This document shows, in pieces, positions 17,091 to 56,140 of a DNA stretch of 64,000 nucleotides (position 1 is its first letter; each line of letters opens with the position of its first letter). The notes beneath the pieces are model-generated. The model made no database searches. It had not been told where the DNA came from and saw nothing but the letters and a program-made list of their open reading frames with translations. Source of the stretch: Gammaproteobacteria bacterium. GTDB taxonomy: Bacteria; Pseudomonadota; Gammaproteobacteria; Eutrophobiales; Eutrophobiaceae. The stretch spans positions 258,520 through 322,519 of the forward strand of contig JBDNFW010000033.1 of NCBI GenBank assembly GCA_041689615.1, written 5' to 3'. The translations under genes and the position numbers were made by a program.

Positions 17091-17128
17091 GAGGTACTCA
17101 GTTTTTTAATGTGTTTCTTTGACATAAC

Positions 17129-22931: not shown

Positions 22932-23001
22932 CCTGGCCGCTTGTTATAAAATCTAAGCTGGTTTATAAGGAAACATAATCCCCCACTAGAAAGATATTAA
23001 T

Positions 23002-23748
23002 ATGAAAATAAGCAAAGAACAAATTGAAGAGTTTAAATCCACCGGCTTTCTCGTTATTCGTAAGTTGTACGATACGGAAAGAATGAAGGAAATTATTACC
23101 TGGACAGAAGAAGTACGCAATTATCCTGAAGTCCCTGGCAACGTCATGATGTATTTTGAACAGAGTAAATTAGAACCGGGAAAAAGAATTATATCCCGTA
23201 TAGAAGATGTCGAACCTTTCCATCAAGGATTCAGTGAGCTTTTTATGCGCGGTGAGATACAGCAAATTACATCTCAATTATTCGATGATAAGGCAATTTT
23301 GTTTAAGGATAAAATAAATTTCAAGATGCCGGGTGCAGATGGTTTCAAAGCGCATCAGGATGTACAGGCCGGCTGGGATCGTTATTCCAAGTTACATATC
23401 ACTGCTTTAGTAAGCGTTGATCCTTCCACCATTGAAAATGGCTGTCTGGAAGTGGCTAATGGTTATAATAATAAAGGACTTATAGGAGAACAGTGGGCAC
23501 CATTAGAAGAAGATGGCCTAGACTATATCGCACTACCAACAGAACCGGGTGATGCTGTTTTCTTTGATTCTTATGCCCCTCACCGTTCAAAAGCAAACCT
23601 GAGTAATGGTCAACGCCGCGTTCTGTATGTCACATACAACGCTGCGGCCGAAGGTGACCATCGTAGAAAATATTATGATGACAAACGTCTTAGCTATCCA
23701 CCAGACATTGAACGGGACACGGACAAAGAATACATATTCAGAGTTTAA
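23002..23748 (+). CDS. PhyH-family Fe(II)/2-oxoglutarate dioxygenase, uncharacterised, embedded in the hopanoid operon
   Basis: 248 aa. HQD (HxD) followed by a downstream His (APHRS) and an Arg, the typical phytanoyl-CoA dioxygenase facial triad arrangement. Confidence 0.6.
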   Translation: MKISKEQIEEFKSTGFLVIRKLYDTERMKEIITWTEEVRNYPEVPGNVMMYFEQSKLEPGKRIISRIEDVEPFHQGFSELFMRGEIQQITSQLFDDKAILFKDKINFKMPGADGFKAHQDVQAGWDRYSKLHITALVSVDPSTIENGCLEVANGYNNKGLIGEQWAPLEEDGLDYIALPTEPGDAVFFDSYAPHRSKANLSNGQRRVLYVTYNAAAEGDHRRKYYDDKRLSYPPDIERDTDKEYIFRV

Positions 23749-23763
23749 TCGATATAACTAAAA

Positions 23764-29293: not shown

Positions 29294-29513
29294 CCTTACG
29301 CTTAATCAAGAAACCTAATACTTTTGCAAAAATGACCATTGCGACACAAGTTAGAAAACCATAGATCGCATGAAATACAAAAAAACCTTCTACTTTAAAA
29401 TGTGGATGCAACACCACGAAAACTTCGGCCAACACAGTTAATGCCAGAATAACAATGGCACCTATCCATAATTTTTTAATTGATGACTTTCTATAGAACC
29501 AGTTTTGATTCAT
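29274..29513 (-). CDS. small 2-TM membrane protein (possible Mrp accessory subunit)
   Basis: 79 aa, hydrophobic. Overlaps its neighbours by 4 and 20 nt, which suggests translational coupling. Confidence 0.35.
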   Translation of the reverse strand: MNQNWFYRKSSIKKLWIGAIVILALTVLAEVFVVLHPHFKVEGFFVFHAIYGFLTCVAMVIFAKVLGFLIKRKDDYYDM

Positions 29514-30976: not shown

Positions 30977-30978
30977 GA

Positions 30979-32463
30979 TTATTTAGTAAATAAATCTTTA
31001 GCGATGGCATTAGCCATATCAACATTAAAAGAAGAATCAAGTCCAAAATAAATATTGGCAACAACAAATAGAGATAATGCAAAAAATAATAAGTATGGCG
31101 TTTTCTGATCTTTATCTAATACGATAATTTCTTTTTCAGATGTTTTAAAATAAGCAACCTCAACAAACTTCCAGATATACATAATGGCTAACACAGATGA
31201 AAAAACAATAACTATCACGAGACCCCAGTAACCCGCTTCAAATGATGCTTTAATCAAGTACCATTTACTAACAAAACCAGCTGTCATGGGTACGCCGATC
31301 AAACTTAATCCGGAAATGAGAAAAGAAAGCATCAGTAAAGGCATTTTTTTAGCCAAACCTGCAAGCTGAGAAATTGAATCCGTCTTGCTATAAAAGATGA
31401 TTGTGACTACCGATAAAAACAGGGTTACTTTAATAATGGCATGATTAAAAATATGAATCAGGCCAGCAGCAAGTCCTGCTTCGGTTGCCAATGAAATACC
31501 TAATAACATATAGCCCAATTGCGCAATACTGGAATAAGCTAATAAACGTTTCAAACTATCTTGTTTAATTGCCAAATAAGAGCCATATAAAATTCCAGCA
31601 CAGGCTAATATCATTAATAAATAATTCAATGTCTCCTGAAAAAAGACATAGTCATGGCCAAATGTTGAATAAATAAATCTTATAAGAACATAGATAAAAA
31701 CTTTGGTCGTCGTGCCTGCAAGAAAAGTAGAGACTATTGACGGCGAATAGCTATAAGCATCGGGCAACCATAAATGCAGAGGAAAAATAGCAGCTTTTAT
31801 TCCAATACCTATGACAAAAAATACCAACGCTATCGTTAATGTCTTCGTATTTTCAACATCTGGCAAACGTTGAAATATATCCGCCATATTTAATGTGCCG
31901 GTAACAACATAAAGTAACCCAACAGCGATCAAAATAAAACTGGCGCCAATCGTTCCATAGATAAGATATTTAAAAGCAGCATATAAACAACGCTTATCTT
32001 TGCCAATACTAATCATAGCGTAAGATGATAGTGAAGCTATTTCTATAAAGACAAATAAATTAAACGCATCACCAGTCATAATGACGCCCAATAAACCGGT
32101 CAAATTTAACAAGAACGCCGTGTAAAATAAATAAAGACGATCAGATGAAATTTCATTCGCAATACTCGCTTTTGCACCGAGCAAAACAATTGCGGCGACA
32201 CCATTAACAATGAGCAACATAAATACCGTCAGCTTATCTAGCCGATATTCAATCCCCCAGGGACTAAGCCAACCACCAAGCGCATATGAAATAACACCTT
32301 CAGTTAAAACTTGGTCAAATAAAATGCAAGAGATAACAAAGGATAAGACACTAACCAGTGCTGTTAACAACCAACTTAATGTACCTTGACGTAAAATGAC
32401 ACATAAGGGTGCAGCTATTAAAGGTACAATTACTTGTAATACAGGCAAATGAGAACTAATCAC
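30979..32463 (-). CDS. MnhD/NuoM-family antiporter-like subunit (GTG start)
   Basis: 494 aa. WLPDAYSYSPSIVSTFLAGTTTKV is an MrpD/NuoM hallmark. Confidence 0.7.
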   Translation of the reverse strand: MISSHLPVLQVIVPLIAAPLCVILRQGTLSWLLTALVSVLSFVISCILFDQVLTEGVISYALGGWLSPWGIEYRLDKLTVFMLLIVNGVAAIVLLGAKASIANEISSDRLYLFYTAFLLNLTGLLGVIMTGDAFNLFVFIEIASLSSYAMISIGKDKRCLYAAFKYLIYGTIGASFILIAVGLLYVVTGTLNMADIFQRLPDVENTKTLTIALVFFVIGIGIKAAIFPLHLWLPDAYSYSPSIVSTFLAGTTTKVFIYVLIRFIYSTFGHDYVFFQETLNYLLMILACAGILYGSYLAIKQDSLKRLLAYSSIAQLGYMLLGISLATEAGLAAGLIHIFNHAIIKVTLFLSVVTIIFYSKTDSISQLAGLAKKMPLLMLSFLISGLSLIGVPMTAGFVSKWYLIKASFEAGYWGLVIVIVFSSVLAIMYIWKFVEVAYFKTSEKEIIVLDKDQKTPYLLFFALSLFVVANIYFGLDSSFNVDMANAIAKDLFTK

Positions 32464-32479
32464 CCAGGACTCCTCTGAA

Positions 32480-32592
32480 AATGTCTTTTATTCGCGATAG
32501 CGGCGTCAGCACTGTGCTCGAATCCTCATGTATTACATATACACTGCGGTTCTGTGCGCAGTGCTTCCTTACTCTCACAAAAAAATCCTATC
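32480..32592. repeat. intercistronic repeat element copy B (mnhC/mnhD spacer), flanked by 14-bp inverted repeats AGGACTCCTCTGAA (32466-32479) and TTCAGAGGAGTCCT (32593-32606)
   Basis: Core cgcgatagcggcgtcagcactgtgctcgaat.ctcatgtat...ccttactc.cacaaaaaaa is shared with copies A and C. It lacks the 18-bp acTCacaGAgtacgatgt hairpin segment. Confidence 0.6.
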
Positions 32593-32952
32593 TTCAGAGG
32601 AGTCCTTAAACTCCTGTTGTATTTCATCATCTTCAACTGAACCAAAGGCATGATAAAGCCGAATAACGATGGCGAGCCCTAATGCGGTCGTTGATATGCC
32701 CACGACAATCGCAGTCAGAATTAACACATGTGGTAAGGGACTCGAATAAAGCGTATTTGATTCATTTAGAATCGGGGCTGTACCACCCGTAATTTTTCCC
32801 ATTGAGATAAATAGAATAAAAATGGATGTTTGAAAGATATTGATGCCTATTAATTTCTTTACCAGATTCTTATGCGCAATAACAATATACAGCCCTATCA
32901 TCATTAATATGACGACGACCCAGTAATTAAACGCCCCCAGAATATCCATCAA
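32575..32952 (-). CDS. MnhC/NuoK-like small antiporter subunit
   Basis: 125 aa, 3 TM, NuoK/MrpC-like profile. Confidence 0.6.
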   Translation of the reverse strand: MMDILGAFNYWVVVILMMIGLYIVIAHKNLVKKLIGINIFQTSIFILFISMGKITGGTAPILNESNTLYSSPLPHVLILTAIVVGISTTALGLAIVIRLYHAFGSVEDDEIQQEFKDSSEDRIFL

Positions 32953-36731: not shown

Positions 36732-37991
36732 TTAAAATAAGTCAATTTCACCTTCAGCCATCGAATTTTGAACTGCAGGTCTTTTATTAGGAAGACTGGT
36801 CAATTCTTCAGCGATTTGATTAATTCTTGATTGCACGTCATTAATCATCTGTTCTGCACGAACGGCATCTTCACATTCTTCTATTTCACACACACCTTCA
36901 GTAAATTTTTGCATAAACTCTGAAAGCACGTTTATTTTTTCGTCGGCATGAATAACAACTTGCCTGACAATATCTTCAAACTGAAGGTTCCTGATAGCGA
37001 CACTTGTTTTGTCTGATATCTCTGTATTAATAACGCCTGCCTGCTCGATTGACTCATCAATAAACGTTTCGAGTAGAGAGAGTGACCCCATCATCGTATC
37101 CACACTCTTTGTGCTTAACATAACCTGTGTCACATCCTCACTAGCAGTATCACCTACCATTTTACTGGCTGTCTGTAGTTTTGATTGAGCTGATGTAACA
37201 CAGCTTTTAATTTCATTATTTAAAATGTTCGACGTTATTGAAAGATTTCTAACTTCATCAGCAACGACAGCAAAACCACGACCTGCTTCTCCAGCTCTTG
37301 CAGCTTCAATAGCGGCATTAAGTGCTAATAAATTTGTTTGATCAGCAATTTGTTTAACTTCATCCAGAAATTTAAATATGGTTGCCATCTCAGTAGATAA
37401 ATCATCTATTGATAAAACAACGTCCATGCTGTGTTTACTGTTCTGGATCATTGTATTAACAAATTCCTCAAGAATTCCTGATGTTTTAGATATAAAACTA
37501 CCGATACTAACTATCTCTTCTTCAAGCTCTTTCTCACCTTCCGAATGTTTTTTTCCCACCACATGTAATCGGCCTGAAAGTTTACTAATCAACTCACCTT
37601 GTGATGACACATCACCACTAATCCCGTAAAAACTTTCATTCAAGTTCATTACTGAATTTGAAATAAGATCCCTGACTTGCCCAAGTTCAGTTTTAATTGA
37701 AGTCATGGACTCACCAATGATGTCATTGACTTTTCCTATCAAATTATGAACGGAGTCTTTTGTTTCTTTTTTATTCGAGCTATTGCCGGAACCCACAGCA
37801 ACATCACCGATTTGACCCTGTATTTGTTTTTCACGACGCATCACCGTCGATACCCAGGAAACAAGAATAAAAATAGAAATCAGCGACTCATGACTCGTAT
37901 TATCAACTATAGAAAAATAGACCAAAGCACCCCCACTCACTAAAAGAGGAAATATATAATTCTTAAGAGATTTGCTACTCTTAATGATCAT
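36732..37991 (-). CDS. methyl-accepting chemotaxis protein, membrane-anchored, without a periplasmic sensor domain
   Basis: 419 aa. Two N-terminal TM helices. Highly conserved MCP tip [32 protein letters not shown]. Confidence 0.85.
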
Positions 37992-38188: not shown

Positions 38189-39298
38189 TTAAGCCGCCAT
38201 GGAAGCGCTTAAAGAAACCAGTCTGTCAACAATCTTATTAAGCGGTAATATGATATCTACAGCGTCGCGTTTTACAGCTTCACCCGGCATTCCCCAAACA
38301 ACACTGCTACGCTCATCCTGAGCAATAGTCACTGCGCCTGCTTGTTTCATTTCCAGCATACCTTCGGCACCATCGTCACCCATACCCGTTAAAATAACAC
38401 CCATGGCATTTTGCCCAAGTTGATTAGCAACAGAGCGAAACAAAACATTAACCGAAGGCCTATGCCGATTAACAGTCGGACCATCGTTTAAACGACAAAT
38501 ATAACGAGCACCGCTTTTTTCAACTAACAAGTGTCTGTTTCCAGGTGCAATATAAGCATGTCCTGCTAGTATCTGTTGTCCATCTGTCGCTTCACAAACT
38601 TTCATTGCCGATAAGCTATCCATTCTCAGAGCAAAGCTAGTGCTAAATTTTTCTGGAATATGCTGTGTAATAACAATACCCGGAGAAGTTGCAGGCATGT
38701 CTTCAAGAAGTTCCCTGATAGCTTCAGTGCCACCGGTAGATGCACCGATAGCAATGATTGAATCTGTTAATTTATAGTTTCGTTTTTTATTATTAAGCTG
38801 CAATACCACATCAGCATTATTCTTTCTGGTAACTTCATGCTTTTTAACCCCCTTATTACTCTTCTTCCGTTTTTCAGAACTTGATTTAACTTGTGCTACC
38901 GATGCAACTTTAACTTTTTCGATTAACTCTGTTGCATAGTCCTGTATAGAGTTACCAAAATTTATTTTTGGCTTAGCTATAAAATCGACGGCGCCCAATT
39001 CCAATGCATCCAGCGTTATCTCTGCTCCCGCTTCAGTTAATGTTGAAACCATTACCACTGGCATCGGTCGTAAACGCATCAAATTAGCAAGAAAGGTAAT
39101 ACCGTCCATATTAGGCATTTCCACATCCAACGTTAATACATCCGGCTTTAACTGCTTAATCTTATCTCTTGCCATTATTGGATCAGCCGCAGTACCAACA
39201 ACGTCTATTCCCTTGTCTGAATTGAGGATCTCAGTCAACATTTTTCTAACCAGTGCTGAGTCATCGATTATTAATACTTTAATTTTTTCAATTGACAT
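38189..39298 (-). CDS. cheB: chemotaxis methylesterase CheB (REC + methylesterase)
   Basis: 369 aa. REC motifs DDSALVRKML and DVEMPNMDG. C-terminal CheB_methylest domain. Confidence 0.9.
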   Translation of the reverse strand: MSIEKIKVLIIDDSALVRKMLTEILNSDKGIDVVGTAADPIMARDKIKQLKPDVLTLDVEMPNMDGITFLANLMRLRPMPVVMVSTLTEAGAEITLDALELGAVDFIAKPKINFGNSIQDYATELIEKVKVASVAQVKSSSEKRKKSNKGVKKHEVTRKNNADVVLQLNNKKRNYKLTDSIIAIGASTGGTEAIRELLEDMPATSPGIVITQHIPEKFSTSFALRMDSLSAMKVCEATDGQQILAGHAYIAPGNRHLLVEKSGARYICRLNDGPTVNRHRPSVNVLFRSVANQLGQNAMGVILTGMGDDGAEGMLEMKQAGAVTIAQDERSSVVWGMPGEAVKRDAVDIILPLNKIVDRLVSLSASMAA

Positions 39299-39318: not shown

Positions 39319-39987
39319 TTAAAATAATTCTACATCACCTTCAATCTTGTCTTCTTCTAAATGTTTCTTATAGTCTTGCTCACGCATGACCACAGTATCA
39401 TTATTCATGGATCGTAATTTTTTAACCTGAAGTTTTCCTGTTTTTGGAAAATAACGCACTTTGCGTGGACAAACATCACCGACATCCTCACTCGCAATAT
39501 CGTAACCTTCCATTTCCAAATATTTTTTTATGAATGAAATGTTCTTACCACCAATATCATTCATTTTTGCCATGATCCTGCCTCCGCCAGTAATCTTAAT
39601 TTCAAAATTATTTTTCCTGCCACCATTTTTTAATAAGTCGTTAACAAGATGTTCCATCGCATCTGAACCATAACGTGCTGCTTTATCTATTTTGTTATAT
39701 TTCCAGCTGTCATCACCTTTCATATTATTCTCCGGCAACATAAAATGGTTCATACCACCGATACCCAATTTAGCATCACGAATACAAACTGAAATACAAG
39801 AACCCAATACGGTCGCAATTATTTCATTTGAACTTGTAACATAGAATTCACCAGGAAGAATTTTGACCATCTCCATATTCATCTGTCGACACCAAAAACG
39901 GTTTATGTTTTCAAAACCCGGTAAGACTTGATTAGATTGATTATTTATTGAATGTATTCCATTCGTTTTTGAAGAAGATTTATTCAT
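39319..39987 (-). CDS. cheD: chemoreceptor glutamine deamidase CheD
   Basis: 222 aa. LGSCISVCIRD...GGMNHFMLP matches the CheD catalytic Cys/His region. Confidence 0.75.
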   Translation of the reverse strand: MNKSSSKTNGIHSINNQSNQVLPGFENINRFWCRQMNMEMVKILPGEFYVTSSNEIIATVLGSCISVCIRDAKLGIGGMNHFMLPENNMKGDDSWKYNKIDKAARYGSDAMEHLVNDLLKNGGRKNNFEIKITGGGRIMAKMNDIGGKNISFIKKYLEMEGYDIASEDVGDVCPRKVRYFPKTGKLQVKKLRSMNNDTVVMREQDYKKHLEEDKIEGDVELF

Positions 39988-40005: not shown

Positions 40006-40857
40006 TCAGGCTGCCTTCTGGTGTATGGTCTTTCCTATCAGCGTAAATCTATCAGTTACTTTATAAAGGCTTTCTGAATGACCAATAAACATATGTGCGT
40101 CTTCTTTAAGTTTGTTTGCAAATTTCTCAAACAAAACACGTTGTGTATCTTTATTAAAGTAAATCACTACGTTTCGACAAAACAAAACATCAAATTGGCC
40201 TTGCATTGGCCAATCTCCCATCAAATTTAACTCTTTAAAAGTGATTAATTCTCTGAGTTTCGGACTAACTTTTACTTCACTAGATTCACATTCAATTCCT
40301 GGTTTTGAGAACCATTTATTAAAACGCTCCTTACTTACACCGCTAATTTTATCTTTTAGATAGATACCTTGACTGGCTTTAGAAAGAACATTGGTATCGA
40401 TATCGGTTGCCAATATTTTAACGTCCCAACTATTAATATTTGGAATGGATTCGAGCAAGGTCATCGCAATCGTGTAAGGCTCTTCACCGGTAGAACAACC
40501 GGCAGACCATATTCGTATTTGTTTTTCTCGTTTTCGCTGTTGTAATAAATATTTAACGACGGTATCGCCTAAATATTCAAAATGATGTGCCTCACGATAA
40601 AAACTGGTTAAGTTGGTGGTAATTGAATTAACAAACTCAACCAGCTCACCTTCCGGATTATTTTTAAGTAAATGACAATATTGATCAAAATTATCAAGAT
40701 CGAGTTTCCTTACACGTCGCGCCAATCGACCATAGACAAGATCTCTTTTCTTTTCGGTAAGAGCAATACCCGTTTTTTCCAAAACCATTTTAATAAGCCA
40801 GTTAAAATGCTTATCAGTAAACTTAAATTCACGTCTGGATTCCATCTTTATCCCCAA
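40006..40857 (-). CDS. cheR: chemotaxis methyltransferase CheR
   Basis: 283 aa. FFREAHHFEYL and IWSAGCSTGEEPYTIAM SAM-binding motif. Confidence 0.9.
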   Translation of the reverse strand: MGIKMESRREFKFTDKHFNWLIKMVLEKTGIALTEKKRDLVYGRLARRVRKLDLDNFDQYCHLLKNNPEGELVEFVNSITTNLTSFYREAHHFEYLGDTVVKYLLQQRKREKQIRIWSAGCSTGEEPYTIAMTLLESIPNINSWDVKILATDIDTNVLSKASQGIYLKDKISGVSKERFNKWFSKPGIECESSEVKVSPKLRELITFKELNLMGDWPMQGQFDVLFCRNVVIYFNKDTQRVLFEKFANKLKEDAHMFIGHSESLYKVTDRFTLIGKTIHQKAA

Positions 40858-40883: not shown

Positions 40884-41342
40884 TTATGCTGCTATCGAAG
40901 GAAGGTTTACAATATCTTTCATACCTAGTAATTCTACTGCGTGACAAAAAGCCTCACTGGGTTTATCCCAGATAACCTTTTTGCCTCCCTCTATAGCGAA
41001 CAAATAGAACCCCAATAATAATTGCAAGGCTGCTGTATCAACTTTCTCTACCTGATCTGATTCGAATACCAACTCAGTTTCATCAGGACTAATATTATTT
41101 AACTCCTCCATTAATTCTGCGATGTCTCTAATAGTAATGGAGCTTTGCAGCTTAATTAAATAGGGAGCATTTCCTTTCTCTTCAACAACACTATCTCCTG
41201 TTGTCACCGCCTCTATATTCTCATTAAGCACTGAGATTTTTTCTTCTTCGCTTAACCATGCAAGAGGATCAACACCAATCAAATTCGTTTTATCTTTTGT
41301 TTTATCATTCATAGTTTTATCCTGTTTATATCGTTCGTCCAT
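40884..41342 (-). CDS. STAS-domain protein (anti-sigma antagonist-like) inside the che operon
   Basis: 152 aa. The C-terminal half has the STAS pattern (VDTAALQLLLGF). Confidence 0.5.
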   Translation of the reverse strand: MDERYKQDKTMNDKTKDKTNLIGVDPLAWLSEEEKISVLNENIEAVTTGDSVVEEKGNAPYLIKLQSSITIRDIAELMEELNNISPDETELVFESDQVEKVDTAALQLLLGFYLFAIEGGKKVIWDKPSEAFCHAVELLGMKDIVNLPSIAA

Positions 41343-42078
41343 GTGCTAAATCCAGCGCTAATGATCCATAATCAGCAGCACCATTACTATTTTTCCTGTA
41401 TTCAAATATAGTCTTTCCAAAACTGGGACATTCAGCAAGAGCCGCCGCTTCACGTATCCGGGTAGCGAGAACCTGTTTAGGGAAATATTGTTTCAACGTA
41501 TCCATCACTTGTTGTGGTAATCGACGGCGTGTATTAAATCGTGTCATAACAAACGATTCATGGATCTTATGCCCAAGTTTTTCAAAATTTTTGAATGTCC
41601 CTATCAGGTAAGATAAACCTTGCAAGGAGAGGTAATCACCCGCTACCGGAATCAAAGCTTCGTTAGTGGAGAAAAGTGCATTTATGACAAGCAAACCAGA
41701 AGCAGGTGGACAATCAATCAACACATAATCCTGATCCTGAAAACGACCTTTCATGGCATCTCGTAATAAAGTACCGCGTTTAATACCTCGCATCGCTTTA
41801 TATTCAAGACTTCCTAACTCAGGCCCTGAAGGTATGAGTGATAAACCAGGCCGTACTTGTTTGACACAGTCCTCGATCGGATATTCATCCAGCAACACTG
41901 AGTCGAGCCCAGGATTTTGCAAATAATCTTCACCCAAACTCGTCGTCAAATGTCCCTGTGGGTCAAGATCGATGACTGTGACCTTGTGTTGGTTCAAAAC
42001 AAGAGCGTGAGCTAAATTCGCTGTCGTCGTTGTTTTACCAACACCGCCCTTTTGGTTGATAACTGCTATTGTGCGCAT
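41326..42078 (-). CDS. ParA/MinD-family ATPase associated with the chemosensory cluster
   Basis: 250 aa. Deviant Walker A motif NQKGGVGKTTT. Confidence 0.8.
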   Translation of the reverse strand: MRTIAVINQKGGVGKTTTTANLAHALVLNQHKVTVIDLDPQGHLTTSLGEDYLQNPGLDSVLLDEYPIEDCVKQVRPGLSLIPSGPELGSLEYKAMRGIKRGTLLRDAMKGRFQDQDYVLIDCPPASGLLVINALFSTNEALIPVAGDYLSLQGLSYLIGTFKNFEKLGHKIHESFVMTRFNTRRRLPQQVMDTLKQYFPKQVLATRIREAAALAECPSFGKTIFEYRKNSNGAADYGSLALDLAHGRTI

Positions 42079-42153: not shown

Positions 42154-45100
42154 CTAGAACTCATCCCACTCACTATCGCTACCAGCACCGGCGGCTTTGG
42201 ATTGTACTTTAGCCGCTGATTTCTTAGGTTGTGATTTTTCTGGAGTCCATGGTCGTTCATCTCTACTACGGCGTTCACCTGCAGCTGCTGTGCTACCGCC
42301 TGTTGAATTATTTCCTGTATTGAAAAATGATATCAACTCAGTTAAACCTTTGGCCTGCTCATCCATGGATTCACTAGCCGCTGCCGCTTCTTCAACCAAT
42401 GATGCGTTTTGTTGCGTCATCTCGTCCATTTGCGCTATGGCTTTATTAATCTGGTCTATACCGGTTGATTGCTCACTACTGGCTGCAGCTATCTCGGCAA
42501 TGATATCGTTAACTTTTTGCACTGAATCAACAATTTGTCCTAAGTTGGTACCGGATTCATTAACAAGTTTTGAACCTTCTTCAACTTTCTGTACGCTATC
42601 ATTAATCAGTGTCTTGATTTCCTTAGCAGCTCCGGCACTACGTTGAGCCAGATTTCGAACTTCGGCAGCAACAACCGCAAAGCCTCGACCCTGTTCACCT
42701 GCTCGGGCTGCTTCAACTGCGGCATTTAAAGCCAACAAATTAGTCTGGAAAGCAATCTCATCAATAACACCTATGATATCTGCAATCTTCTTGCTCGCCT
42801 GATTGATTTCACTCATTGCGGCAATCGCATCAGTCACTACAGCTCCACCTTTTTCAGCTTCAGTTCGTGCGCCCGCAGCCAATTGATTTGCCTGCTGTGC
42901 ATTGTCTGCATTTTGTTTCACTGTGCCAGTTAGCTCTTCAATACTGGAGGCTGTTTCTTCTAACGAAGACGCCTGCTCTTCAGTACGTTGACTTAGATCC
43001 AGGTTGCCCTGTGCAATTTCATTCGCAGAAGTATTAATAGAGCTTGCACTTTCACGAATCTCACCTACCATTTTCATTAGATTGGAAATTGAAGTATTCA
43101 CCGCACCTTGCATCGTCAAGAACTGACCTTCGAATTCACCATTCATCGTCTGTGTTAAATCACCATCAGACAAACTTTCAATAACACGAGTTGACTCATT
43201 GATAGGCACAACAACTGCATCCATCAAATTGTTAATCGATGAAGCCAATCTCTTTGTAAAACCGGAAAAGTCATCGACTTCAAGTCGAGTACCCAATTCA
43301 CCATTAGTTGCAGCATTGATAAGATTTTCTATTTGTCGCTCTGCATTTTTTTCCTCAGTAATATCACGCCATTCAACCATGTTGCCCATGTAGTTGCCTT
43401 CGGGATCTGTAATGGCAGTGGCATTCAATCCAAACTCCATGCCACCTACTTTTATTTCAGCATTGGCAGGCAAACTAGCCACATCACCTAACAAACGTCG
43501 TTGATGTGCCGGATTTTTATGAAACTGATCTATACATTCGCCTACCAACTTATCAACATTCAGACTAGGCCAGATAGAACGTAATTCAGTTTGTCGATTT
43601 CTTAACATTTCAACAACAGCAGGGTTAACATAAGTGATATTCAAATCCTCATCACAAAGCATCAAGTTAGCCTGTGCGCCATCAACAGCCGATTGCAAAC
43701 GTGCCACTTCAAGATCACGTTGACGCATTGCAGTCACGTCTTCCCATTCCAGTGTTGTACCGATGTAAGTACCGTTCAGATCCATTTGTGCTGAAACCAC
43801 CAGTTTGAACTTGAGATCAAGAATTTCAATATCGGTTGTGTAAGGTAGGTTCTTTGGATCATCTAATAATTTACGTTGATGCGCTGGGTTTTTATGAAAC
43901 ACATCGATACACGTACCCATAACATTGTTTGCATCAAAACCAGGCCAATTCTCAGCGAATTTAGCCTGATGTTTTGCCAATAATGCGTTAGTTGATTCAT
44001 TAACATAAGTAATGATGAAATCACGGTCGATCATGATCATTGGTGATTGCGCACCATCAACAGCGACTTGTAAGCGAGCTGAGGCTATTTGTTGTTGACG
44101 TAATGCGGTACCATCAGTTGCATATTTGACAACTTTAAAAGTATTTCCATTCATATCAAAAACGGCGTTGTAACTTGCATTGAGCCAAAGCTCTTCACCT
44201 TTCTTATTTAAACGTTTGAATTGACCGCTCTGTGATTCGCCGTTACTTAACTTTTTCCAAAAATCCTTGTATTCCTGACTTCCTGCATAGGTAGCATCAA
44301 CAAACATACTGTGATGTTTTCCTTTGATCTCTTCTAACGTGTAACCAACTGCATTAGTAAAATTTTCATTCGCAGTAATAATCGTACCATCGAGATTAAA
44401 CTCGATCGCTGCTTGAGTTTTACTTATAGCGTCCAACTTTCCTGAAAAATCGGCATACTCAAGTTTTTGAGCGGTCACGTCAGTCGCAAACTTCACAACT
44501 TTATAAGCCTTTCCATCTTTAAAGACTGGGTTGTAAGAGGCATTAATCCAGATTTCTTTACCACCCTTTCCGATACGTTTGTATTCACCGGCATCGAACT
44601 CACCACGATTCAGTTTTTCCCAGAATTGTTTGTATTCCGGACTTGCTGCATAAGTAGGCTCAACAAACATACTGTGATGCTTACCTTGAATCTCTTCCAA
44701 ACTATAATCTATGACATTTAGAAAATTTTCATTCGCTGTGATGACTGTACCATCCAGATTGAATTCAATCGTTCCCTGTACCTTATCTATTGCGGTAATC
44801 TTGCCCAACAACTCTTCATGTTGTTTTTTAAGACTATCCAATTCTTGTTTCAATGTTTCGTTGTTATCTAAATTATCCATTTTTTGATCCTCTTCTTTCA
44901 TTTCTTCATTTCCCGAATTTTCGTATGCACCCAACATTGCTGATGCGACCGTGTTTAAAGCATTTGTCCAGGCCTGTTTAACATCATCGGTCCACAGGTC
45001 TCCTGCAAATTCACTCATTACTTCAAGTAATACTTCTGCTACTGCCGGATACTGCTCGGCAACAACACCATATTTCTGATGATTCTTTCCCAGATTACTT

Positions 45101-45336
45101 AGGGCTGGCCCTAATACATCGGGCTTACGAATGTTATTAACTACCAGCGCCAATCCGGACAAGAGTTTCTTTTCTTGCTCTTTCTGATCAACATTGGCAA
45201 ACATCGGTTTCACATCCGGGTAGCGTGAAAACAATTCACTGTAGAATTTTTCTACCAATGCCTCACCCTGAGGTGCAAGTTTGGCAAAGGTGTCTTCGAC
45301 TAATTTAATCTGTCTTTGGGTCAGCTTTTTGCTCAT
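42154..45336 (-). CDS. soluble chemoreceptor: N-terminal Vgb/Hmp-type globin, 4 PAS domains (two tandem pairs), MCP signalling domain
   Basis: 1060 aa. Globin domain (KNHQKYGVVAEQYPAVAEVLLEVM, proximal His context). PAS repeats (GTIEFNLDGT.ITANENF; FHKNPAHQR). MCP tip [32 protein letters not shown]. No TM segments are evident. Confidence 0.85.
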   Translation of the reverse strand: MSKKLTQRQIKLVEDTFAKLAPQGEALVEKFYSELFSRYPDVKPMFANVDQKEQEKKLLSGLALVVNNIRKPDVLGPALSNLGKNHQKYGVVAEQYPAVAEVLLEVMSEFAGDLWTDDVKQAWTNALNTVASAMLGAYENSGNEEMKEEDQKMDNLDNNETLKQELDSLKKQHEELLGKITAIDKVQGTIEFNLDGTVITANENFLNVIDYSLEEIQGKHHSMFVEPTYAASPEYKQFWEKLNRGEFDAGEYKRIGKGGKEIWINASYNPVFKDGKAYKVVKFATDVTAQKLEYADFSGKLDAISKTQAAIEFNLDGTIITANENFTNAVGYTLEEIKGKHHSMFVDATYAGSQEYKDFWKKLSNGESQSGQFKRLNKKGEELWLNASYNAVFDMNGNTFKVVKYATDGTALRQQQIASARLQVAVDGAQSPMIMIDRDFIITYVNESTNALLAKHQAKFAENWPGFDANNVMGTCIDVFHKNPAHQRKLLDDPKNLPYTTDIEILDLKFKLVVSAQMDLNGTYIGTTLEWEDVTAMRQRDLEVARLQSAVDGAQANLMLCDEDLNITYVNPAVVEMLRNRQTELRSIWPSLNVDKLVGECIDQFHKNPAHQRRLLGDVASLPANAEIKVGGMEFGLNATAITDPEGNYMGNMVEWRDITEEKNAERQIENLINAATNGELGTRLEVDDFSGFTKRLASSINNLMDAVVVPINESTRVIESLSDGDLTQTMNGEFEGQFLTMQGAVNTSISNLMKMVGEIRESASSINTSANEIAQGNLDLSQRTEEQASSLEETASSIEELTGTVKQNADNAQQANQLAAGARTEAEKGGAVVTDAIAAMSEINQASKKIADIIGVIDEIAFQTNLLALNAAVEAARAGEQGRGFAVVAAEVRNLAQRSAGAAKEIKTLINDSVQKVEEGSKLVNESGTNLGQIVDSVQKVNDIIAEIAAASSEQSTGIDQINKAIAQMDEMTQQNASLVEEAAAASESMDEQAKGLTELISFFNTGNNSTGGSTAAAGERRSRDERPWTPEKSQPKKSAAKVQSKAAGAGSDSEWDEF

Positions 45337-45380
45337 ATCAATATCCTTGGCATACTATAAAATAACCATTTTTAAATTAA

Positions 45381-45824
45381 TTAAACTGCAATTTTATGTT
45401 CAATTTCATCATAGGCCGCCAGCATTATTTCGGCGACGGTGTTCAGTGCATTGGTCCAGGCTTGTTTAACGTCATCCGTCCATAAGTCACCCGCCATGTC
45501 GCTCATGACACTCAGTAATGTCTCTGCCACTACCGGATAATGTGCGGCAACTGCACCGTAGCCTTGATGTTTTTTACCGAGATTACTCAAGGCAGGGCCT
45601 AAGTCCTCTGGTTTACGTAAGTTATTAATCACTAGCACCAGACCCGACAGAAGCTTCTTTTCTTGTTCCTTTTGATTAACATTCTTAAACATCGGCTTCA
45701 CTTCAGGATGACGAGAAAATAATTCACTGTAAAATTTTTCAACCAGAACCGCACCCTGAGGCGCAAGTTTACCGAACGTTTCTTCGAGTAGTTCTATTTG
45801 TGTCTCGTTTAGTGGTTCGTTCAT
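45381..45824 (-). CDS. single-domain haemoglobin (Vitreoscilla Vgb / flavohaemoglobin N-domain type)
   Basis: 147 aa. About 75 % identical to the globin domain of the adjacent MCP. KKHQGYGAVAAHYPVVAETLL aligns with Vgb [20 protein letters not shown]. Confidence 0.8.
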   Translation of the reverse strand: MNEPLNETQIELLEETFGKLAPQGAVLVEKFYSELFSRHPEVKPMFKNVNQKEQEKKLLSGLVLVINNLRKPEDLGPALSNLGKKHQGYGAVAAHYPVVAETLLSVMSDMAGDLWTDDVKQAWTNALNTVAEIMLAAYDEIEHKIAV

Positions 45825-45868: not shown

Positions 45869-46411
45869 TTAGTGTGTTGTTGGACTTTTTTTTTGAGCAT
45901 TAGCTGAATTAACAACTTGAGTAATATCAATATCTGCATCAATAAGATGATCAATATCCAGCAAGATCAACATCTTTTCATCAACCGTTGCCAGTCCTTT
46001 GACAAACTTTGTATTAACGGCTTTACCAAAATCTGGCGATGGTTTTAATTGTTCTTCGGTCAAGTTATAAACATCGGATACGGCATCAACAATAAAACCG
46101 ATAGTTTTTTCCTTTTTCTCGGTTTTTGTCTTTAAGACGATAACAACTGTCGTATTGCTATATTCAACTTGTTCAAGTTCAAATCGACTTCGAAGATCGA
46201 CAATTGGCACTATCGTGCCACGCAGGTTCATAACGCCTTGTATATATTTAGGCGTATTTGGAATTTCTGTAGCACTTTCCCAACCTTTGATTTCCTGAAC
46301 CCTTAAAATATCCACACCATATTCTTCACCCGCTAACATAAACGTCAGAAATTGATTGGCATTATCTGAATCTAATTCAACAACACTTTCTTCTCTAACT
46401 TCAGCGTTCAT
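45869..46411 (-). CDS. cheW: CheW coupling protein
   Basis: 180 aa. GVMNLRGTIVPIVDLR CheW motif. Confidence 0.85.
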   Translation of the reverse strand: MNAEVREESVVELDSDNANQFLTFMLAGEEYGVDILRVQEIKGWESATEIPNTPKYIQGVMNLRGTIVPIVDLRSRFELEQVEYSNTTVVIVLKTKTEKKEKTIGFIVDAVSDVYNLTEEQLKPSPDFGKAVNTKFVKGLATVDEKMLILLDIDHLIDADIDITQVVNSANAQKKSPTTH

Positions 46412-46423: not shown

Positions 46424-48493
46424 CTATGCTGCTTGGTTATTCATAACAGATGATGTTTTATATTCTTCTTGCTTACGATAGAGACCTAATAGACTTGTTA
46501 CATCTAGAATCATTGCGACGGTACCATCACCTAAAATAGTCGCACCAGATACGCCTTCTACCTTTTGGAAATTTGTTTCCAGACTTTTTATAACAACTTG
46601 TTGCTGAGCAAGTAAGTCGTCAATAAACAAACCTACTTTTTGACCTTCTGATTCAACAACAACTAATAGACCATTTACAAGTTCTGTATTATTACTAGCG
46701 ACATTAAATATTTCATGTAAACGTAATATAGGTAGATAATCTTCACGTAACCTATAAACCTCTGCATCACCTGTAATCGATTTAGTGTGCTCTTCTTTTA
46801 TTTGTATTGATTCGATAATTGAAACTAAAGGAATAATGTAAGTTTGAGTACCTACTTTAATGAGTTGTCCATCGAGTATTGCCAGTGTTAATGGTAAGCG
46901 TATTGTAAAGACTGAACCTTTACCTTCTTCTGATTTAACTTCGACAGTTCCACCAAGGTCATGAATATTACGTTTGACAACATCCATACCGACGCCGCGA
47001 CCGGATACATCACTAACTACTTCAGCGGTTGAAAAACCGGCATGGAAAATAAGTTCATTAATTCTTCTATCCGATAGTGTTTCGCCTTCCTTAACGAGTC
47101 CACGTTCAATTGCTTTACTTAGAATTCGTTCTCTATTAAGGCCAGCGCCGTCATCTTCAATATCAATAACGATATTGCCACCCTCATGATAAGCATTAAG
47201 ATGTATTGTGCCTGTTTCCGGCTTACCTGCAGCAAGACGAACTTCAGGCATTTCGATGCCATGATCGAGTGAATTTCTTACCAGATGAACAAGTGGATCA
47301 CCAATCTTCTCCATGACTGTCTTATCAAGTTCTGTTCCTTCACCTGACAATTTAAGCTCGATTTTTTTATTCAACTTGCTACTTAAATCATGAACCAGTC
47401 GAGGAAATCGGTTAAACGAAAAACTGATTGGCAACATACGAATTTGCATCACATTTTCTTGTAGTTCACGCGTATTTCGTTCCAACTGTTTTAGACCATC
47501 GCTTAACTTCTCAACATCTTTCATATCAAAGTCTTCACCAAATTGTCCTAGCATCGATTGAGTGATAACCAGTTCGCCGACCATATTAATCAATGTATCA
47601 ATTTTATCTGTATTAACTCGTATAGAAGATGATTCGCTACTAGCACCATGGCGGTCAGTACTTCTTCTATCTCCTGCTCTTCTATCTCCTGCTCTTCTAT
47701 CTTCTGCTGATGCTACTTCTTTTACTTGATTATCAGTTGATGGCTTATTGTCATTATTTGTTTCAATTGAATCACTAGAACTAATTTGAGTGATAATTAA
47801 CTCGCAATCATCTTCTACCCATTCAAAGACTTCTTTCACTTTATCTTCGTCAACATCCGTCGTAAGAGTTAGATCCCATGACAAATAACATTCTTCAGTA
47901 TCGTATTTATCAAAGGGAGGCAGATTATCAATATGAAGCTCGGTGGATAATTCACCAAACTCTTCCAGTTCGCGGAACATGCGTAAAGGGTCATTGCCTG
48001 TCTGGAACATATGATGATGAGGTACAAAATTAATATGCCAACCAGAACCGGCTAGACTACTGTCACTACTTTCACCAGCGTCCACTTCAGTCTGAGAATT
48101 TGATTCAACTCCCAATGCCTTTTCTAGTTCACTCTGGACTGACTTGATATGCTCTTCGTCTATTTCTGTTTTATCTCGTGCTGCTGATAGCATCTCACGT
48201 AAGCAATCAACTGAAGTTAGTAATAAATTGACCTCTTCCTGATTCAGCTCATGTTTCCCTGAACGAACATCATCAAGTAGCGTTTCAAGAACATGCGTAA
48301 AACCGGTTATCTCATTAAAACCAAAACTACCACTACCACCTTTGATAGAATGCGCGGCACGAAATATTTTGTTTATTTCTTCATCACCAGGATCTTTATA
48401 ATCGAGCTCAAGAAGCTCGGTTTCCATAATTTCCAAGCCTTCAAAACTTTCTTCAAAGAAGACACCGTGAAACTGAGTTAGGTCAATCGACAT
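46424..48493 (-). CDS. cheA: CheA histidine kinase (Hpt-linker-dimerisation-HATPase-CheW)
   Basis: 689 aa. Hpt motif FRAAHSIKGGSGSFGF. HATPase G-boxes. C-terminal CheW-like domain. RRAGDRRAGDRRSTDR low-complexity linker. Confidence 0.9.
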   Translation of the reverse strand: MSIDLTQFHGVFFEESFEGLEIMETELLELDYKDPGDEEINKIFRAAHSIKGGSGSFGFNEITGFTHVLETLLDDVRSGKHELNQEEVNLLLTSVDCLREMLSAARDKTEIDEEHIKSVQSELEKALGVESNSQTEVDAGESSDSSLAGSGWHINFVPHHHMFQTGNDPLRMFRELEEFGELSTELHIDNLPPFDKYDTEECYLSWDLTLTTDVDEDKVKEVFEWVEDDCELIITQISSSDSIETNNDNKPSTDNQVKEVASAEDRRAGDRRAGDRRSTDRHGASSESSSIRVNTDKIDTLINMVGELVITQSMLGQFGEDFDMKDVEKLSDGLKQLERNTRELQENVMQIRMLPISFSFNRFPRLVHDLSSKLNKKIELKLSGEGTELDKTVMEKIGDPLVHLVRNSLDHGIEMPEVRLAAGKPETGTIHLNAYHEGGNIVIDIEDDGAGLNRERILSKAIERGLVKEGETLSDRRINELIFHAGFSTAEVVSDVSGRGVGMDVVKRNIHDLGGTVEVKSEEGKGSVFTIRLPLTLAILDGQLIKVGTQTYIIPLVSIIESIQIKEEHTKSITGDAEVYRLREDYLPILRLHEIFNVASNNTELVNGLLVVVESEGQKVGLFIDDLLAQQQVVIKSLETNFQKVEGVSGATILGDGTVAMILDVTSLLGLYRKQEEYKTSSVMNNQAA
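47637..47702 (-). repeat. 15-bp tandem repeat (ctcctgctcttctat, about 2.5 copies) encoding the RRAGD repeats in the CheA linker
   Basis: Direct tandem copies are visible in the DNA. Confidence 0.7.
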
Positions 48494-48551: not shown

Positions 48552-48932
48552 TCAGGCAATAACTTTTTTAATGGTTGCGAGCAATTGATCTGGATTAAAT
48601 GGTTTAACTAACCAGCCTGTCGCTCCAGCAGTCTTTCCTTTGCCTTTCATATCGGCTGATGATTCAGTAGTTAACATCAACATAGGCGTATGTTTATAAT
48701 TAGGTAACTTACGTAACTCCTGTATTAATGTGATGCCATCCATATTCGGCATATTGACATCCGTCAATACTGCGTCAGAATTACTAGCTTTCGCTTTGTT
48801 TAGAGCATCCACTCCATCCACAGCTTCTATCACATCGTAACCTGCTCCTTTTAATGTGAATGCCACCATTTGGCGCATTGAAGCTGAATCATCTACTGTA
48901 AGAATTGTTGCCATAATAATTGATATCCTCAA
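48552..48932 (-). CDS. cheY: CheY response regulator
   Basis: 126 aa. Intact DD (TVDDSASM), phospho-Asp context LTDVNMPNMDG and KP. Confidence 0.9.
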   Translation of the reverse strand: MRISIIMATILTVDDSASMRQMVAFTLKGAGYDVIEAVDGVDALNKAKASNSDAVLTDVNMPNMDGITLIQELRKLPNYKHTPMLMLTTESSADMKGKGKTAGATGWLVKPFNPDQLLATIKKVIA

Positions 48933-53170: not shown

Positions 53171-54601
53171 TTAACCAGCTAATGCCGACAAACACAAAGC
53201 CATCAACGCATTAGGCGCCAAGCCCAATAACAAGATCAACAATCCATTAACACTTAATACCATTCGCATTTGCTTAGATGCTTTAATCGCTGTCATCGAA
53301 TCTGCTTTATCAAAATACATCAGCTTAACTATACGCAAGTAGTAGTAAGCCCCGATAATAGAAAAGACTACGGCAACGGCAGCTAGGGTTACAAAACCCG
53401 ATGCCACCAGTTCTTTTAAGACAAACCATTTTGACCAGAAGCCAAGAAACGGTGGAACACCTGCCATTGAAAACATTAGACACAACATAATAAAAGCAAA
53501 CCAGGGACTACGGTCTGACAGGCCTTTAAAGTCATCCAGCATTTCAGCTTCAAAACTATTTCGACTTAACAGGATAATCATACCAAACGCACCCATGCTC
53601 ATTAGCGCATAGCTGATAATATAAAACATCGAACCGGAAAAACCGGTACCTGTTCCTGCAATAAGGCCGAGGAATAAAAATCCAACATGTGCAATCGTTG
53701 AATAAGCCAACATGCGTTTTATATTTGTCTGGGCTATAGCAATGATGTTACCGAGGCCCATTGATAGAACAGCAAGTATCATTAAGATTGACTGCCAGTC
53801 AGAAATTAATGGAAACAAACCATCAACCAATACACGCATTGCCATAGCAAAGGCCGCAAGTTTTGGAGCGGTACTAATGAACAAGGTTACTGAGGTTGGC
53901 GCACCTTGATAAACATCGGGTACCCACATATGAAATGGTGCAGCACCTAATTTGAATGCTATTCCAATAATCATAAAGATCATGCCAAAGACAAGATAGG
54001 AACGATTAATAGAATCACTGCTTGCCGCTTCAGCGATACTAGCTAATTGTAAATGTCCGGTAAGTCCATAAATCATTGAAATACCATATAACAACATACC
54101 CGATGCCAAGGCACCGAGAATAAAATATTTCATCGCCGCTTCAGAGGCTGATTCGGAATCACGTTGCATGGCAACCATGGCATACAAAGACAGTGATAAT
54201 AATTCCAGACCAAGATACACAGATAAAAGACTCGCAGCAGAAGCCATAATCATCATGCCAAGTACCGCAAATAATCCCAGGACAAAGTATTCGCCTTTTA
54301 GAGATCGTTGTTCTTTCAGGTATTCATAGGAATAAAGAAAAACAAAGAAGGTAATACCACACATAAAGGCTTTGAGCGTCGCACTCATGGCATCACTAAT
54401 AAAACCATTATTAAATGCATATGCAACATCAGTTGGAAAGTTATTCAACACTAATACTAGTGTGATTAACAAAGTTGCCTGAGTAACCCAGTATGTTAAT
54501 GAATGTAGTGGGTCTTTATTAAAGGCATCGACAATCAATACCAGACACGCTAAAGCAAATAAGGTGATTTCGGGTATAGCCAGTATTAAGTCAGCATTCA
54601 T
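53171..54601 (-). CDS. nuoN: NADH-quinone oxidoreductase subunit N
   Basis: 476 aa. Last gene of the nuo operon. Confidence 0.9.
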   Translation of the reverse strand: MNADLILAIPEITLFALACLVLIVDAFNKDPLHSLTYWVTQATLLITLVLVLNNFPTDVAYAFNNGFISDAMSATLKAFMCGITFFVFLYSYEYLKEQRSLKGEYFVLGLFAVLGMMIMASAASLLSVYLGLELLSLSLYAMVAMQRDSESASEAAMKYFILGALASGMLLYGISMIYGLTGHLQLASIAEAASSDSINRSYLVFGMIFMIIGIAFKLGAAPFHMWVPDVYQGAPTSVTLFISTAPKLAAFAMAMRVLVDGLFPLISDWQSILMILAVLSMGLGNIIAIAQTNIKRMLAYSTIAHVGFLFLGLIAGTGTGFSGSMFYIISYALMSMGAFGMIILLSRNSFEAEMLDDFKGLSDRSPWFAFIMLCLMFSMAGVPPFLGFWSKWFVLKELVASGFVTLAAVAVVFSIIGAYYYLRIVKLMYFDKADSMTAIKASKQMRMVLSVNGLLILLLGLAPNALMALCLSALAG

Positions 54602-56118
54602 AAAATTTTACTCTGCAATACATGTTTAATCAGTTCTTCTACAGTCACATGCATAACATCAAAGATAGGTGCAGGCCAAACACCGAACATTATGACAACA
54701 ATAGCTAACATAAAGAGAATAAAACCTTCTCTACTGTTAATGTCTTTTAACTCAGCGACGTCTTCTTTGGTAACATCGCCGAAGATCACCCGTTTGTACA
54801 TCCATAAACTATAAGCTGCACCAAGGATTAATGTTAATGCCGCAGTAAAGGCAATCCAGAAACTGGCTTTGAAACTACTCAGTATCACCAGAAATTCGCC
54901 AACAAAACCTGAAGTTCCGGGCAATCCTGAATTAGCCAGAACAAAGAGCATCATAAAAGCCGCGAAGTAAGGCATGCTATTAACCACACCACCATAGTCT
55001 TTAATCATTCGGCTGTGTAAACGATCGTACATCACACCAACGCAAAGAAACATGGCGGCTGAAATAAAACCATGAGAAATCATTTGCATCATGGCGCCTT
55101 CCATCCCCATGATTGCACCTGAATCTGACCCTGTAGCTGCAACAATCGCGAAAGGAATAAAGAAACCCAGTGTGACAAAACCCATATGTGATATTGATGA
55201 GTAAGCAATTAACTTTTTCATATCTTCCTGAACCAGTGCCACAAAGCCGATATAAACAATTGCTATTAATGAAAGAACAATCATTGCATCACTAAAAAAT
55301 AAACTGGCATCTGGTGTAATCGGCAAACTAAATCTGAGAAAACCATAACCACCCATCTTCAACATAATGGCAGCAAGCACCACTGAACCACCGGTTGGTG
55401 CTTCAACATGCGCATCCGGCAACCAGGTATGTACTGGCCACATGGGGATCTTCACAGCAAAGGCCAGAAAGAACGCAATAAAGATAAGTTTTTGAGCTGA
55501 TAAACTTAGCGGAACATCATGTAAAGCTTCAATATTAAAACTACCTGCTACGGAATACAGATAGAGAAAAGCGACTAGCATAAAGACCGAACCCAGGAAG
55601 GTATAAAGAAAAAACTTTATTGTAGCGTAAACTCGGTTTGGCCCACCCCAAATACCAATGATTAAAAACATCGGTATCAACATTGCTTCCCAGAACACAT
55701 AAAACAAGATGACATCGAGTGCGATAAAAACCGCATTCATTAATCCAGTAAGAATTAAAAAGGCACACATATAATAAGAAATGCGTTTCTCTATCACTTC
55801 CCATGAAGCCAGAATAACAAGTATTGTAGTGAACGTGGTCAGCAAGATTAATGGCAAGGCAATACCATCAACACCAAGATGATATTTAATATTAAATGCA
55901 CTTATCCATTCCGTCTCTTCAACAAACTGCATACCGGAATAAGAGATATCAAATTGACAATACAACATAATAGAAAAAACAAAGGTAATAATAGAAACAG
56001 CAAGCGAAAAGTATTTCACCGTTTCTTCCTGACGATCACCCGCAATCAAAACCCAGATGCCACCGAGTATCGGTGTCCAGATAAGCATACTTAATAAAGG
56101 TAAATTACTTAATGTCAT
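54598..56118 (-). CDS. nuoM: NADH-quinone oxidoreductase subunit M
   Basis: 506 aa. WLPDAHVEAPTGGS motif. Confidence 0.9.
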   Translation of the reverse strand: MTLSNLPLLSMLIWTPILGGIWVLIAGDRQEETVKYFSLAVSIITFVFSIMLYCQFDISYSGMQFVEETEWISAFNIKYHLGVDGIALPLILLTTFTTILVILASWEVIEKRISYYMCAFLILTGLMNAVFIALDVILFYVFWEAMLIPMFLIIGIWGGPNRVYATIKFFLYTFLGSVFMLVAFLYLYSVAGSFNIEALHDVPLSLSAQKLIFIAFFLAFAVKIPMWPVHTWLPDAHVEAPTGGSVVLAAIMLKMGGYGFLRFSLPITPDASLFFSDAMIVLSLIAIVYIGFVALVQEDMKKLIAYSSISHMGFVTLGFFIPFAIVAATGSDSGAIMGMEGAMMQMISHGFISAAMFLCVGVMYDRLHSRMIKDYGGVVNSMPYFAAFMMLFVLANSGLPGTSGFVGEFLVILSSFKASFWIAFTAALTLILGAAYSLWMYKRVIFGDVTKEDVAELKDINSREGFILFMLAIVVIMFGVWPAPIFDVMHVTVEELIKHVLQSKIL

Positions 56119-56140
56119 GTGTTTATTCTTTAATAAATAA

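Follow-up and report, generated by a model that had tools for sequence, protein, structure and literature searches.

A stand-alone globin gene lies directly upstream of a globin-headed chemoreceptor gene

We analyzed a 64,000-nt stretch of DNA (hereafter the window) from a gammaproteobacterium of the Eutrophobiaceae (contig JBDNFW010000033.1), in which a small stand-alone globin gene sits within a chemotaxis operon beside a chemoreceptor gene whose product begins with a closely similar globin domain. The free globin gene lies 44 nt upstream of the receptor gene, and both are carried on the minus strand (positions are those of the window):

45381..45824, minus strand: free globin gene, an open reading frame (ORF) of 147 aa for a stand-alone globin of the F/M family (flavohaemoglobin-like)
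45337..45380, minus strand: 44-nt spacer between free globin and receptor, read from the sequence
42154..45336, minus strand: receptor gene, a 1060-aa ORF for a chemoreceptor
44890..45336, minus strand: N-terminal globin domain of the receptor, aa 1-149 (Pfam Globin at aa 30-134)

A first-pass annotation, made from the sequence without database searches, had reported a 147-aa globin adjoining a methyl-accepting chemotaxis protein (MCP) headed by a globin, the two being about 75% identical as proteins. Both ORFs are present, and BLASTP of the free globin against receptor residues 1-149 gave a gap-free alignment with 104 of 139 residues identical (75%, E=5e-80). The accompanying estimate of 75-80% DNA identity over about 330 bp was slightly high: over the 417 nt that align, identity is 72.7%, rising to 75.2% in the best segment of 330 nt, and 71 of the 114 nucleotide differences fall at third codon positions. 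The shared motif that had been read in the two proteins, AAHYP.V..LL, is exact in the free copy (AAHYPVVAETLL), while the receptor copy differs from it (AEQYPAVAEVLL).

All three reading frames of the 44-nt spacer are interrupted by stop codons, and the receptor ATG is preceded by a Shine-Dalgarno-like sequence, AAGGA. An independent assembly (Logan SRR9199117) carries an identical free globin gene, including the stop codon, with the same split. Given the stops in the spacer and this second assembly, the free globin and the receptor are truly separate genes. Scanning the interval from cheW through the free globin to the receptor revealed no promoter- or terminator-like site above chance, so the three genes are likely co-transcribed. 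An Rfam scan of the window gave no match.

Both globins belong to the flavohaemoglobin lineage

Both copies had been proposed to be 3-on-3 globins of the Vgb/Hmp type rather than sensor globins, and the profile and database matches of both agree with this. The Pfam Globin family (PF00042) matched the free globin with 58 bits and the receptor with 67 bits (cut-off 22), and a Pfam scan found no Protoglobin (PF11563) match at E<=0.01 in either protein. The best matches of the free globin among PDB sequences were Vitreoscilla haemoglobin (Vgb; 1vhb, 3.7e-21) and Hell's Gate globin I (HGbI; 3s1i), with HGbRL at 5e-18 and FHP of Ralstonia at 7e-18; the receptor globin matched HGbI (7e-18), HGbRL, FHP and Vgb (9e-16). 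Further solved relatives by sequence were FHb of yeast, thermoglobin, Cgb of Campylobacter and Hmp, and no sensor globin appeared among the 60 PDB sequence matches listed. The top NCBIfam model for both copies was the globin domain of nitric oxide (NO)-inducible flavohaemoprotein (Hmp), at 1.3e-27 for the free globin and 9e-26 for the receptor.

An AlphaFold2 (AF2) model was made for the free globin only (predicted local distance difference test, pLDDT, 76), and the receptor copy was judged by sequence. We looked for a structure-based placement in the clade of the globin-coupled sensors (GCS); instead, the free globin grouped with HGbI, FHP, Vgb and Cgb. In Foldseek, HGbI was the best match to the model (template modeling, TM, scores of 0.80/0.89), FHP, Vgb, thermoglobin and Cgb each reached TM >=0.77, and no sensor globin was present among the best 50 matches. 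The free globin has a 3-on-3 fold of ~140 aa without an extra N-terminal helix, because the start of the chain aligns with Vgb residue 3.

Helix positions were taken from the alignment with Vgb, whose Y29, F43, Q53, H85 and Y95 occupy B10, CD1, E7, F8 and G5. F31, Y32 (B10), F46 (CD1), Q54 (E7), L58 (E11), H86 (F8) and Y96 (G5) are invariant across 50 family members, and H86 provides the proximal His in a proper alignment. Protoglobin matches do occur in 18 of the 50 relatives. We considered whether these challenge the assignment and rejected the idea: the matches are weak and fall on the same residues as the Globin matches, as in L016, one of the related loci described below (66 bits for PF11563 and 241 bits for Globin). 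Together, these data place both copies in the flavohaemoglobin/Vgb lineage (F or M) rather than among the sensor globins. We infer that both bind haem and, as ligand, a diatomic gas, either O2 or NO.

The receptor is an Aer2-family protein with a different N-terminus

Pfam resolves the receptor into a Globin domain, two PAS_3-type PAS domains, two further PAS domains, a HAMP domain and an MCP signaling domain. Downstream of the globin domain, the following segments were delimited:

44092..44778, minus strand: two PAS_3-type PAS domains, aa ~187-291 and ~308-415 (Pfam PAS_3/PAS_9/PAS_4)
43351..44079, minus strand: two Aer2-type haem-PAS domains, aa ~420-540 and 544-662 (PDB matches and aligned motifs)
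42157..43269, minus strand: HAMP (aa 690-753), MCP signaling domain (aa 818-974) and tail (Pfam HAMP_2, MCPsignal)
42157-42171, minus strand: C-terminal pentapeptide EWDEF (from the sequence)

The two Aer2-type domains each contain one FHKNPAHQR haem-His motif (aa 480 and 605) and one conserved Trp within EWED or EWRD (aa 530 and 655). The last PAS together with HAMP (aa 539-756) matched the PAS-HAMP structure of PaAer2 (3vol) at 3.8e-42, and other Aer2 PAS structures were also recovered (PaAer2 4hi4, 7e-24; VcAer2 6ceq, 2e-23). The PAS_3 pair, found in just 8 of 50 family members, is weakly similar to the FAD-PAS of MmoS (3ewk, 8e-13), to the PAS of Aer (8dik, 3e-9) and to DosP. The NCBIfam Aer2 equivalog NF041847 covers receptor residues 384-1060 (model positions 129-804) with 857 bits, below its 1200-bit cut-off because the receptor N-terminus is replaced by the globin and the two PAS_3 domains.

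We found no hydrophobic segment in the receptor (maximum 19-residue Kyte-Doolittle mean 1.26), which is thus predicted to be soluble. Receptor residues 707-1007 align with residues 217-517 of E. coli Tsr at equal length (301 residues), pointing to the 36H heptad class; such a signaling domain should probably allow assays of the receptor in E. coli, as were done for other Aer2 receptors. The EWDEF pentapeptide conforms to the xWxxF tail reported as typical of Aer2 (PMC10107281, PMC7184735), which in VvAer2 reads EWEEF (PMC10107281). Judged from its domains, the receptor is an Aer2-family protein that has gained a globin at its N-terminus and, in its own sub-lineage, two more PAS domains. The label "PAS-MCP" used in the first-pass annotation was right about the PAS and MCP domains and incomplete otherwise, as it missed the Aer2 family, the two Aer2-type haem-PAS domains and the F7 operon in which the gene lies.

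The locus resembles a stage 1 F7 chemosensory operon

The operon runs cheY, cheA, cheW, free globin, receptor, ParA-like ATPase, STAS, cheR, cheD, cheB, McpA-like MCP and receiver-PP2C-HATPase_c_2. The genes flanking the globin pair were annotated with Pfam as follows:

48552-48932, minus strand: cheY (Response_reg)
46424-48493, minus strand: cheA (Hpt/H-kinase_dim/HATPase_c/CheW)
45869-46411, minus strand: cheW (CheW)
41326-42078, minus strand: ParA-like ATPase
40884-41342, minus strand: STAS protein
40006-40857, minus strand: cheR
39319-39987, minus strand: cheD
38189-39298, minus strand: cheB
36732-37991, minus strand: McpA-like MCP, 419 aa
34644-36407, minus strand: receiver-PP2C-HATPase_c_2 protein (anti-sigma-kinase-like)

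The F7 "stage 1" set comprises STAS, cheY, cheA, two cheW, aer2-like, cheR, cheD, cheB, mcpA-like, STAS and Ser phosphatase genes (PMC7184735). Compared by gene content, all of these gene types are found in the window operon, which departs from the set in having one cheW, a single STAS gene placed elsewhere, an added ParA-like gene and the added free globin. By this measure, the locus resembles an F7-type (Aer2-type) operon of the ancestral "stage 1" kind. No reductase gene was found in the operon by Pfam annotation.

Two side observations concern the operon proteins. The STAS protein, the receiver-PP2C-HATPase_c_2 protein and the McpA-like MCP at the operon end suggest a partner-switching output of the F7 system. 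The linker between P1 and P3 of CheA (46424-48493, minus strand; aa ~262-281) contains a short repeat, AEDRRAGDRRAGDRRSTDRH.

Relatives fuse the same globin to receptors, CheA, CheW and STAS proteins

A scan of a genome collection recovered 45 related loci (numbered with an L) from at least 45 species-level genomes, all of them metagenome-assembled genomes (MAGs). These are mostly uncultured and mostly marine Gammaproteobacteria, including Woeseiaceae, Thiohalobacter, Thioalkalispiraceae, Ectothiorhodospiraceae and others. The order cheY-cheA-cheW-(parA)-globin receptor-cheR-cheD-cheB is kept in most of the 45 loci, and Globin+PAS+HAMP+MCPsignal accounts for 39 of the 50 globin-bearing family ORFs. 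Most globin ORFs are signaling fusions, and a free globin was seen solely in the window and in L047, which has an 82%-identical free globin and the same order of cheW, free globin and globin receptor. The four receptors closest to that of the window (L001-L004) have no free globin beside them. Other arrangements were found among the relatives:

L005, L016, L023, L033, L041: 2-4 tandem globins in one receptor
L023:5078-7603, L041:6719-9331, L044:261-2747, L042:4441-5520: globin in CheA between the Hpt (P1) and dimerization (P3) domains
L019:692-2512 and protein P0008: CheW followed by three globins
L030:8901-9926: Globin-STAS, with an F-type rather than a sensor-type globin

The globin inserted in CheA occupies the site where P2 normally lies, and across the relatives the globin is covalently linked to every structural class of array protein. 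An exhaustive protein profile search with the globin family returned 254 cluster representatives at E<1e-30, and among the 70 of these that were scanned the commonest partner domains were MCP, PAS and CheW. A word-index search had yielded 6 proteins, and the rarity this implied was overturned by the exhaustive profile search and the genome scan.

The profile search also turned up proteins of other kinds. Pentapeptide-repeat domains are fused to the globin in 6 of the 70 representatives. The top matches to the family profile are poly-globin proteins with little beyond globins: P0007 (2461 aa) has 14 globins, P0016 (1842 aa) has 12, P0010 (2352 aa) has 9-10, and P0018 (1208 aa) has 7 globin domains plus a cytochrome b5 domain. 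Some of these four could be eukaryotic.

A further motif recurs at the loci. The STAS protein of the window (40884-41342, minus strand) carries at aa ~22-34 a conserved N-terminal motif, G-x-DPL(A/S)W(M/L), after which a Lys/Arg-rich tract usually comes. Where the ParA-like gene lies directly upstream of the globin receptor, this motif is found on the receptor; where parA follows the receptor (window, L001-L004), the STAS protein bears it instead, and L030 has it on the Globin-STAS protein. Besides the window STAS protein, it was seen at receptor N-termini in L006, L009, L010, L012-L015, L018, L021, L023, L024, L030, L031, L033-L035, L041, L044 and L045, and may be a ParA-partner or nucleoid-tethering peptide that positions a cytoplasmic array.

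The tandem duplication is old and both copies are under purifying selection

The globin pair had been described as recently duplicated, and this part of the first-pass annotation fell. Synonymous divergence (pS) between the free and fused copies of the window is 0.75 and saturated, with a ratio of nonsynonymous to synonymous divergence (dN/dS) of about 0.04; between the free orthologs of the window and L047, dN/dS is 0.05. In globin trees built by neighbor-joining on Kimura distances with 200 bootstraps, the free globins of the window and L047 paired at 99% bootstrap, while same-genome paralogs paired in 0-1% of replicates. The tandem globin duplication is therefore old, as synonymous sites are saturated and L047 holds an orthologous free/fused pair, and both copies are under strong purifying selection.

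The window and L047 also have a CheW C-terminal tail in common, which hints that they are sister lineages. The tree would fit either loss of the free globin in L001-L004 or its gain in the ancestor of the window and L047. We also considered whether the window pair could be a split di-globin receptor of the L005 type. The spacing fits, as the two fused globin matches of L005 lie 45 nt apart compared with the 44-nt spacer in the window. The idea was rejected, however: the first globin of L005 is only 52-54% identical and is not kin to the free clade in particular. Since it has no specific relationship to that clade, tandem globin duplication seems to have occurred repeatedly.

The free globin may act as a detached sensing subunit of the array

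On balance, we lean towards the free globin being a haem-sensing subunit that is detached from the receptor or array it serves, one that would bind O2 or NO and probably pair with the receptor globin. Sensing integrated into the array is favored because relatives fuse the same globin to MCP, CheA, CheW and STAS proteins. With haem and O2 or NO bound by the globins, one or two globin haem sites would supplement the two Aer2-type haem-PAS sites. The receptor would integrate the globin and PAS sites by way of the PAS-HAMP relay that has been described in Aer2. The simplest route would be for the free globin to pair with the receptor's own globin domain. Such pairing could shift the ligand range, or the cooperativity, with which the PAS-HAMP-kinase control module, CheA and CheY are driven. 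On this view, the free globin would be a functional equivalent, in trans, of the extra in-frame globins of the relatives and not a bulk buffer.

Four observations count against a role as a sensing subunit. The node joining the free and fused clades has 10-37% bootstrap support. The absence of a free globin at L001-L004 indicates that it is dispensable for the system. The CheW- and CheA-linked globins of the relatives would sit near the baseplate and not at the receptor tip, a position that would also fit local scavenging. Finally, a Tyr B10/Gln E7 pocket is of the type used by NO-dioxygenating globins.

The last two points bear on the main rival explanation, in which the free globin acts as an enzyme, namely an NO dioxygenase, or as a scavenger that traps O2 with high affinity. 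It would protect or condition the haem sensors of the array and take no part in signaling itself. That the best NCBIfam model is the globin domain of an NO-inducible flavohaemoprotein agrees with this explanation, as does the likeness of the Tyr B10/Gln E7/Leu E11 pocket to those of Vgb, Hmp and Cgb, and globins tethered to CheW or CheA would concentrate such an activity at the baseplate. However, the operon lacks a reductase gene, the globin is almost never alone, most ORFs at the 45 loci being signaling fusions, and its position within the che operon is conserved. We consider a scavenging role unlikely.

The first-pass annotation had suggested that the free globin could buffer or compete for the gas or serve as a decoy for the receptor; it would then draw ligand away, or would act as a negative regulator through non-productive heterodimers with the receptor globin. 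Heterodimers would be permitted by the 75% identity of the two globins, whose genes are probably co-transcribed, but an equimolar soluble globin cannot long buffer a freely diffusing gas. Moreover, relatives carry up to four globins per receptor in cis, which suggests that additional globins contribute to sensing instead of diminishing it, and we regard this explanation as quite improbable. Least credible by far is that the free gene arose by misassembly or is the decaying leftover of a di-globin receptor that split: relatives such as L005 do have di-globin receptors with similar inter-globin spacing, but dN/dS is 0.04-0.05 with every haem-pocket residue kept, the 82%-identical ortholog in L047 shows the same split, and an independent assembly contains the identical gene.

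Returning to the sensing subunit, a broader and more tentative proposal is that flavohaemoglobin-lineage globins represent a second, independent origin of globin-coupled chemosensing. They would form a modular haem layer of variable copy number on ancestral F7 (Aer2) arrays, in which the module is fused to the receptor, CheA, CheW or STAS or is supplied in trans. In the window, a free globin docked on the receptor globin would make a multi-haem sensor, possibly a cooperative one or one for both O2 and NO. If this proposal is true, the stage 1 F7 system, to which no function has yet been assigned, would gain a defined input.

Other features of the window

The window has a GC content of about 38%. 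Away from the chemotaxis operon, a pfa-type polyunsaturated fatty-acid synthase cluster (KS-AT-ACPx4-KR-DH, KS-CLF-FabA x2 and enoyl reductase) adjoins a hopanoid cluster (squalene synthase-like, squalene-hopene cyclase and MMPL/HpnN-like). Subunits of Complex I/Mrp-type antiporters lie on both sides of the operon:

1337-18817, minus strand, and 19108-27371, plus strand: pfa-type and hopanoid clusters
27623-32952 and 53171-58117: Complex I/Mrp-type antiporter subunits

Comparison with known systems

HemAT-type GCS share with the window receptor an N-terminal haem globin on an MCP signaling domain and a presumed role in gas sensing. The receptor would work like such a sensor as well as like Aer2. 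It is nevertheless not a HemAT-type GCS, because its globin has no Protoglobin match; it belongs to the other 3-on-3 lineage, and PAS and HAMP domains stand between globin and signaling domain. Compared with Vgb, Cgb and HGbI, which are single-domain F/M globins, the free globin has the same fold, length, His F8, Tyr B10, Gln E7, Phe CD1 and Tyr G5 at about 30-34% identity. Those proteins are stand-alone handlers of O2 or NO, whereas the free globin lies within a chemosensory operon and is paralogous to a receptor domain.

Chimeric 3-on-3 globins have been described as being of two types only, flavohaemoglobins and GCS of the S family (PMC1457004, PMC7475203). HGbRL of Methylacidiphilum joins an F-type globin to a Roadblock/LC7 domain and has a free paralog, HGbI; it is reportedly restricted to one genus (PMC4476040). 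We found no other solved case in which a putative sensor domain is an F-lineage globin and the genome also encodes a free paralog. The output domain of HGbRL is different, and the window family spans dozens of MAG species rather than one genus. In Treponema, a separate sensor is found beside, and works with, a soluble MCP that has no sensor copy of its own, the sensor being the di-iron protein ODP. CetA and CetB form a split pair of sensor and MCP (PMC12442639), in which the small separate sensor is likewise encoded beside the receptor; there the sensor is an FAD-PAS protein and the receptor lacks its own sensor copy.

In the literature accessible as full text, subscription-only papers aside, we found no description of a PF00042-type globin on an MCP or Aer2 protein. 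The nearest case is a Corallococcus MCP with PAS and a truncated globin, reported in silico (PMC6194562).

Among the closest parallels is Aer2 (McpB) of P. aeruginosa, V. cholerae and V. vulnificus, which belongs to F7 systems. These receptors are likewise soluble, with FHKNPAHQR haem-PAS domains, the conserved Trp and HAMP, and they have the Tsr-length signaling domain and the xWxxF tail in common with the window receptor. The order cheY-cheA-cheW-receptor-cheR-cheD-cheB-mcpA-like-Ser phosphatase is also shared, although the window has one cheW instead of two and an additional ParA-like ATPase. The window receptor adds an N-terminal flavohaemoglobin-type globin and two PAS_3 domains, and a free globin gene lies beside it. 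The role of stage 1/2 F7 systems has been called unclear in a study that never mentions globins (PMC7184735, Ortega et al., 2020), and a receptor with three or four predicted haem sites would offer a useful handle on it. Haem-PAS (Aer2) and globin (HemAT) receptors are assigned to distinct classes in a 2026 review on aerotaxis receptors (PMC13401364). The receptor described here joins an F-lineage globin with Aer2 haem-PAS domains in one protein and so crosses classes that reviews keep apart, in a design that recurs in at least 45 species-level genomes and 254 protein clusters.

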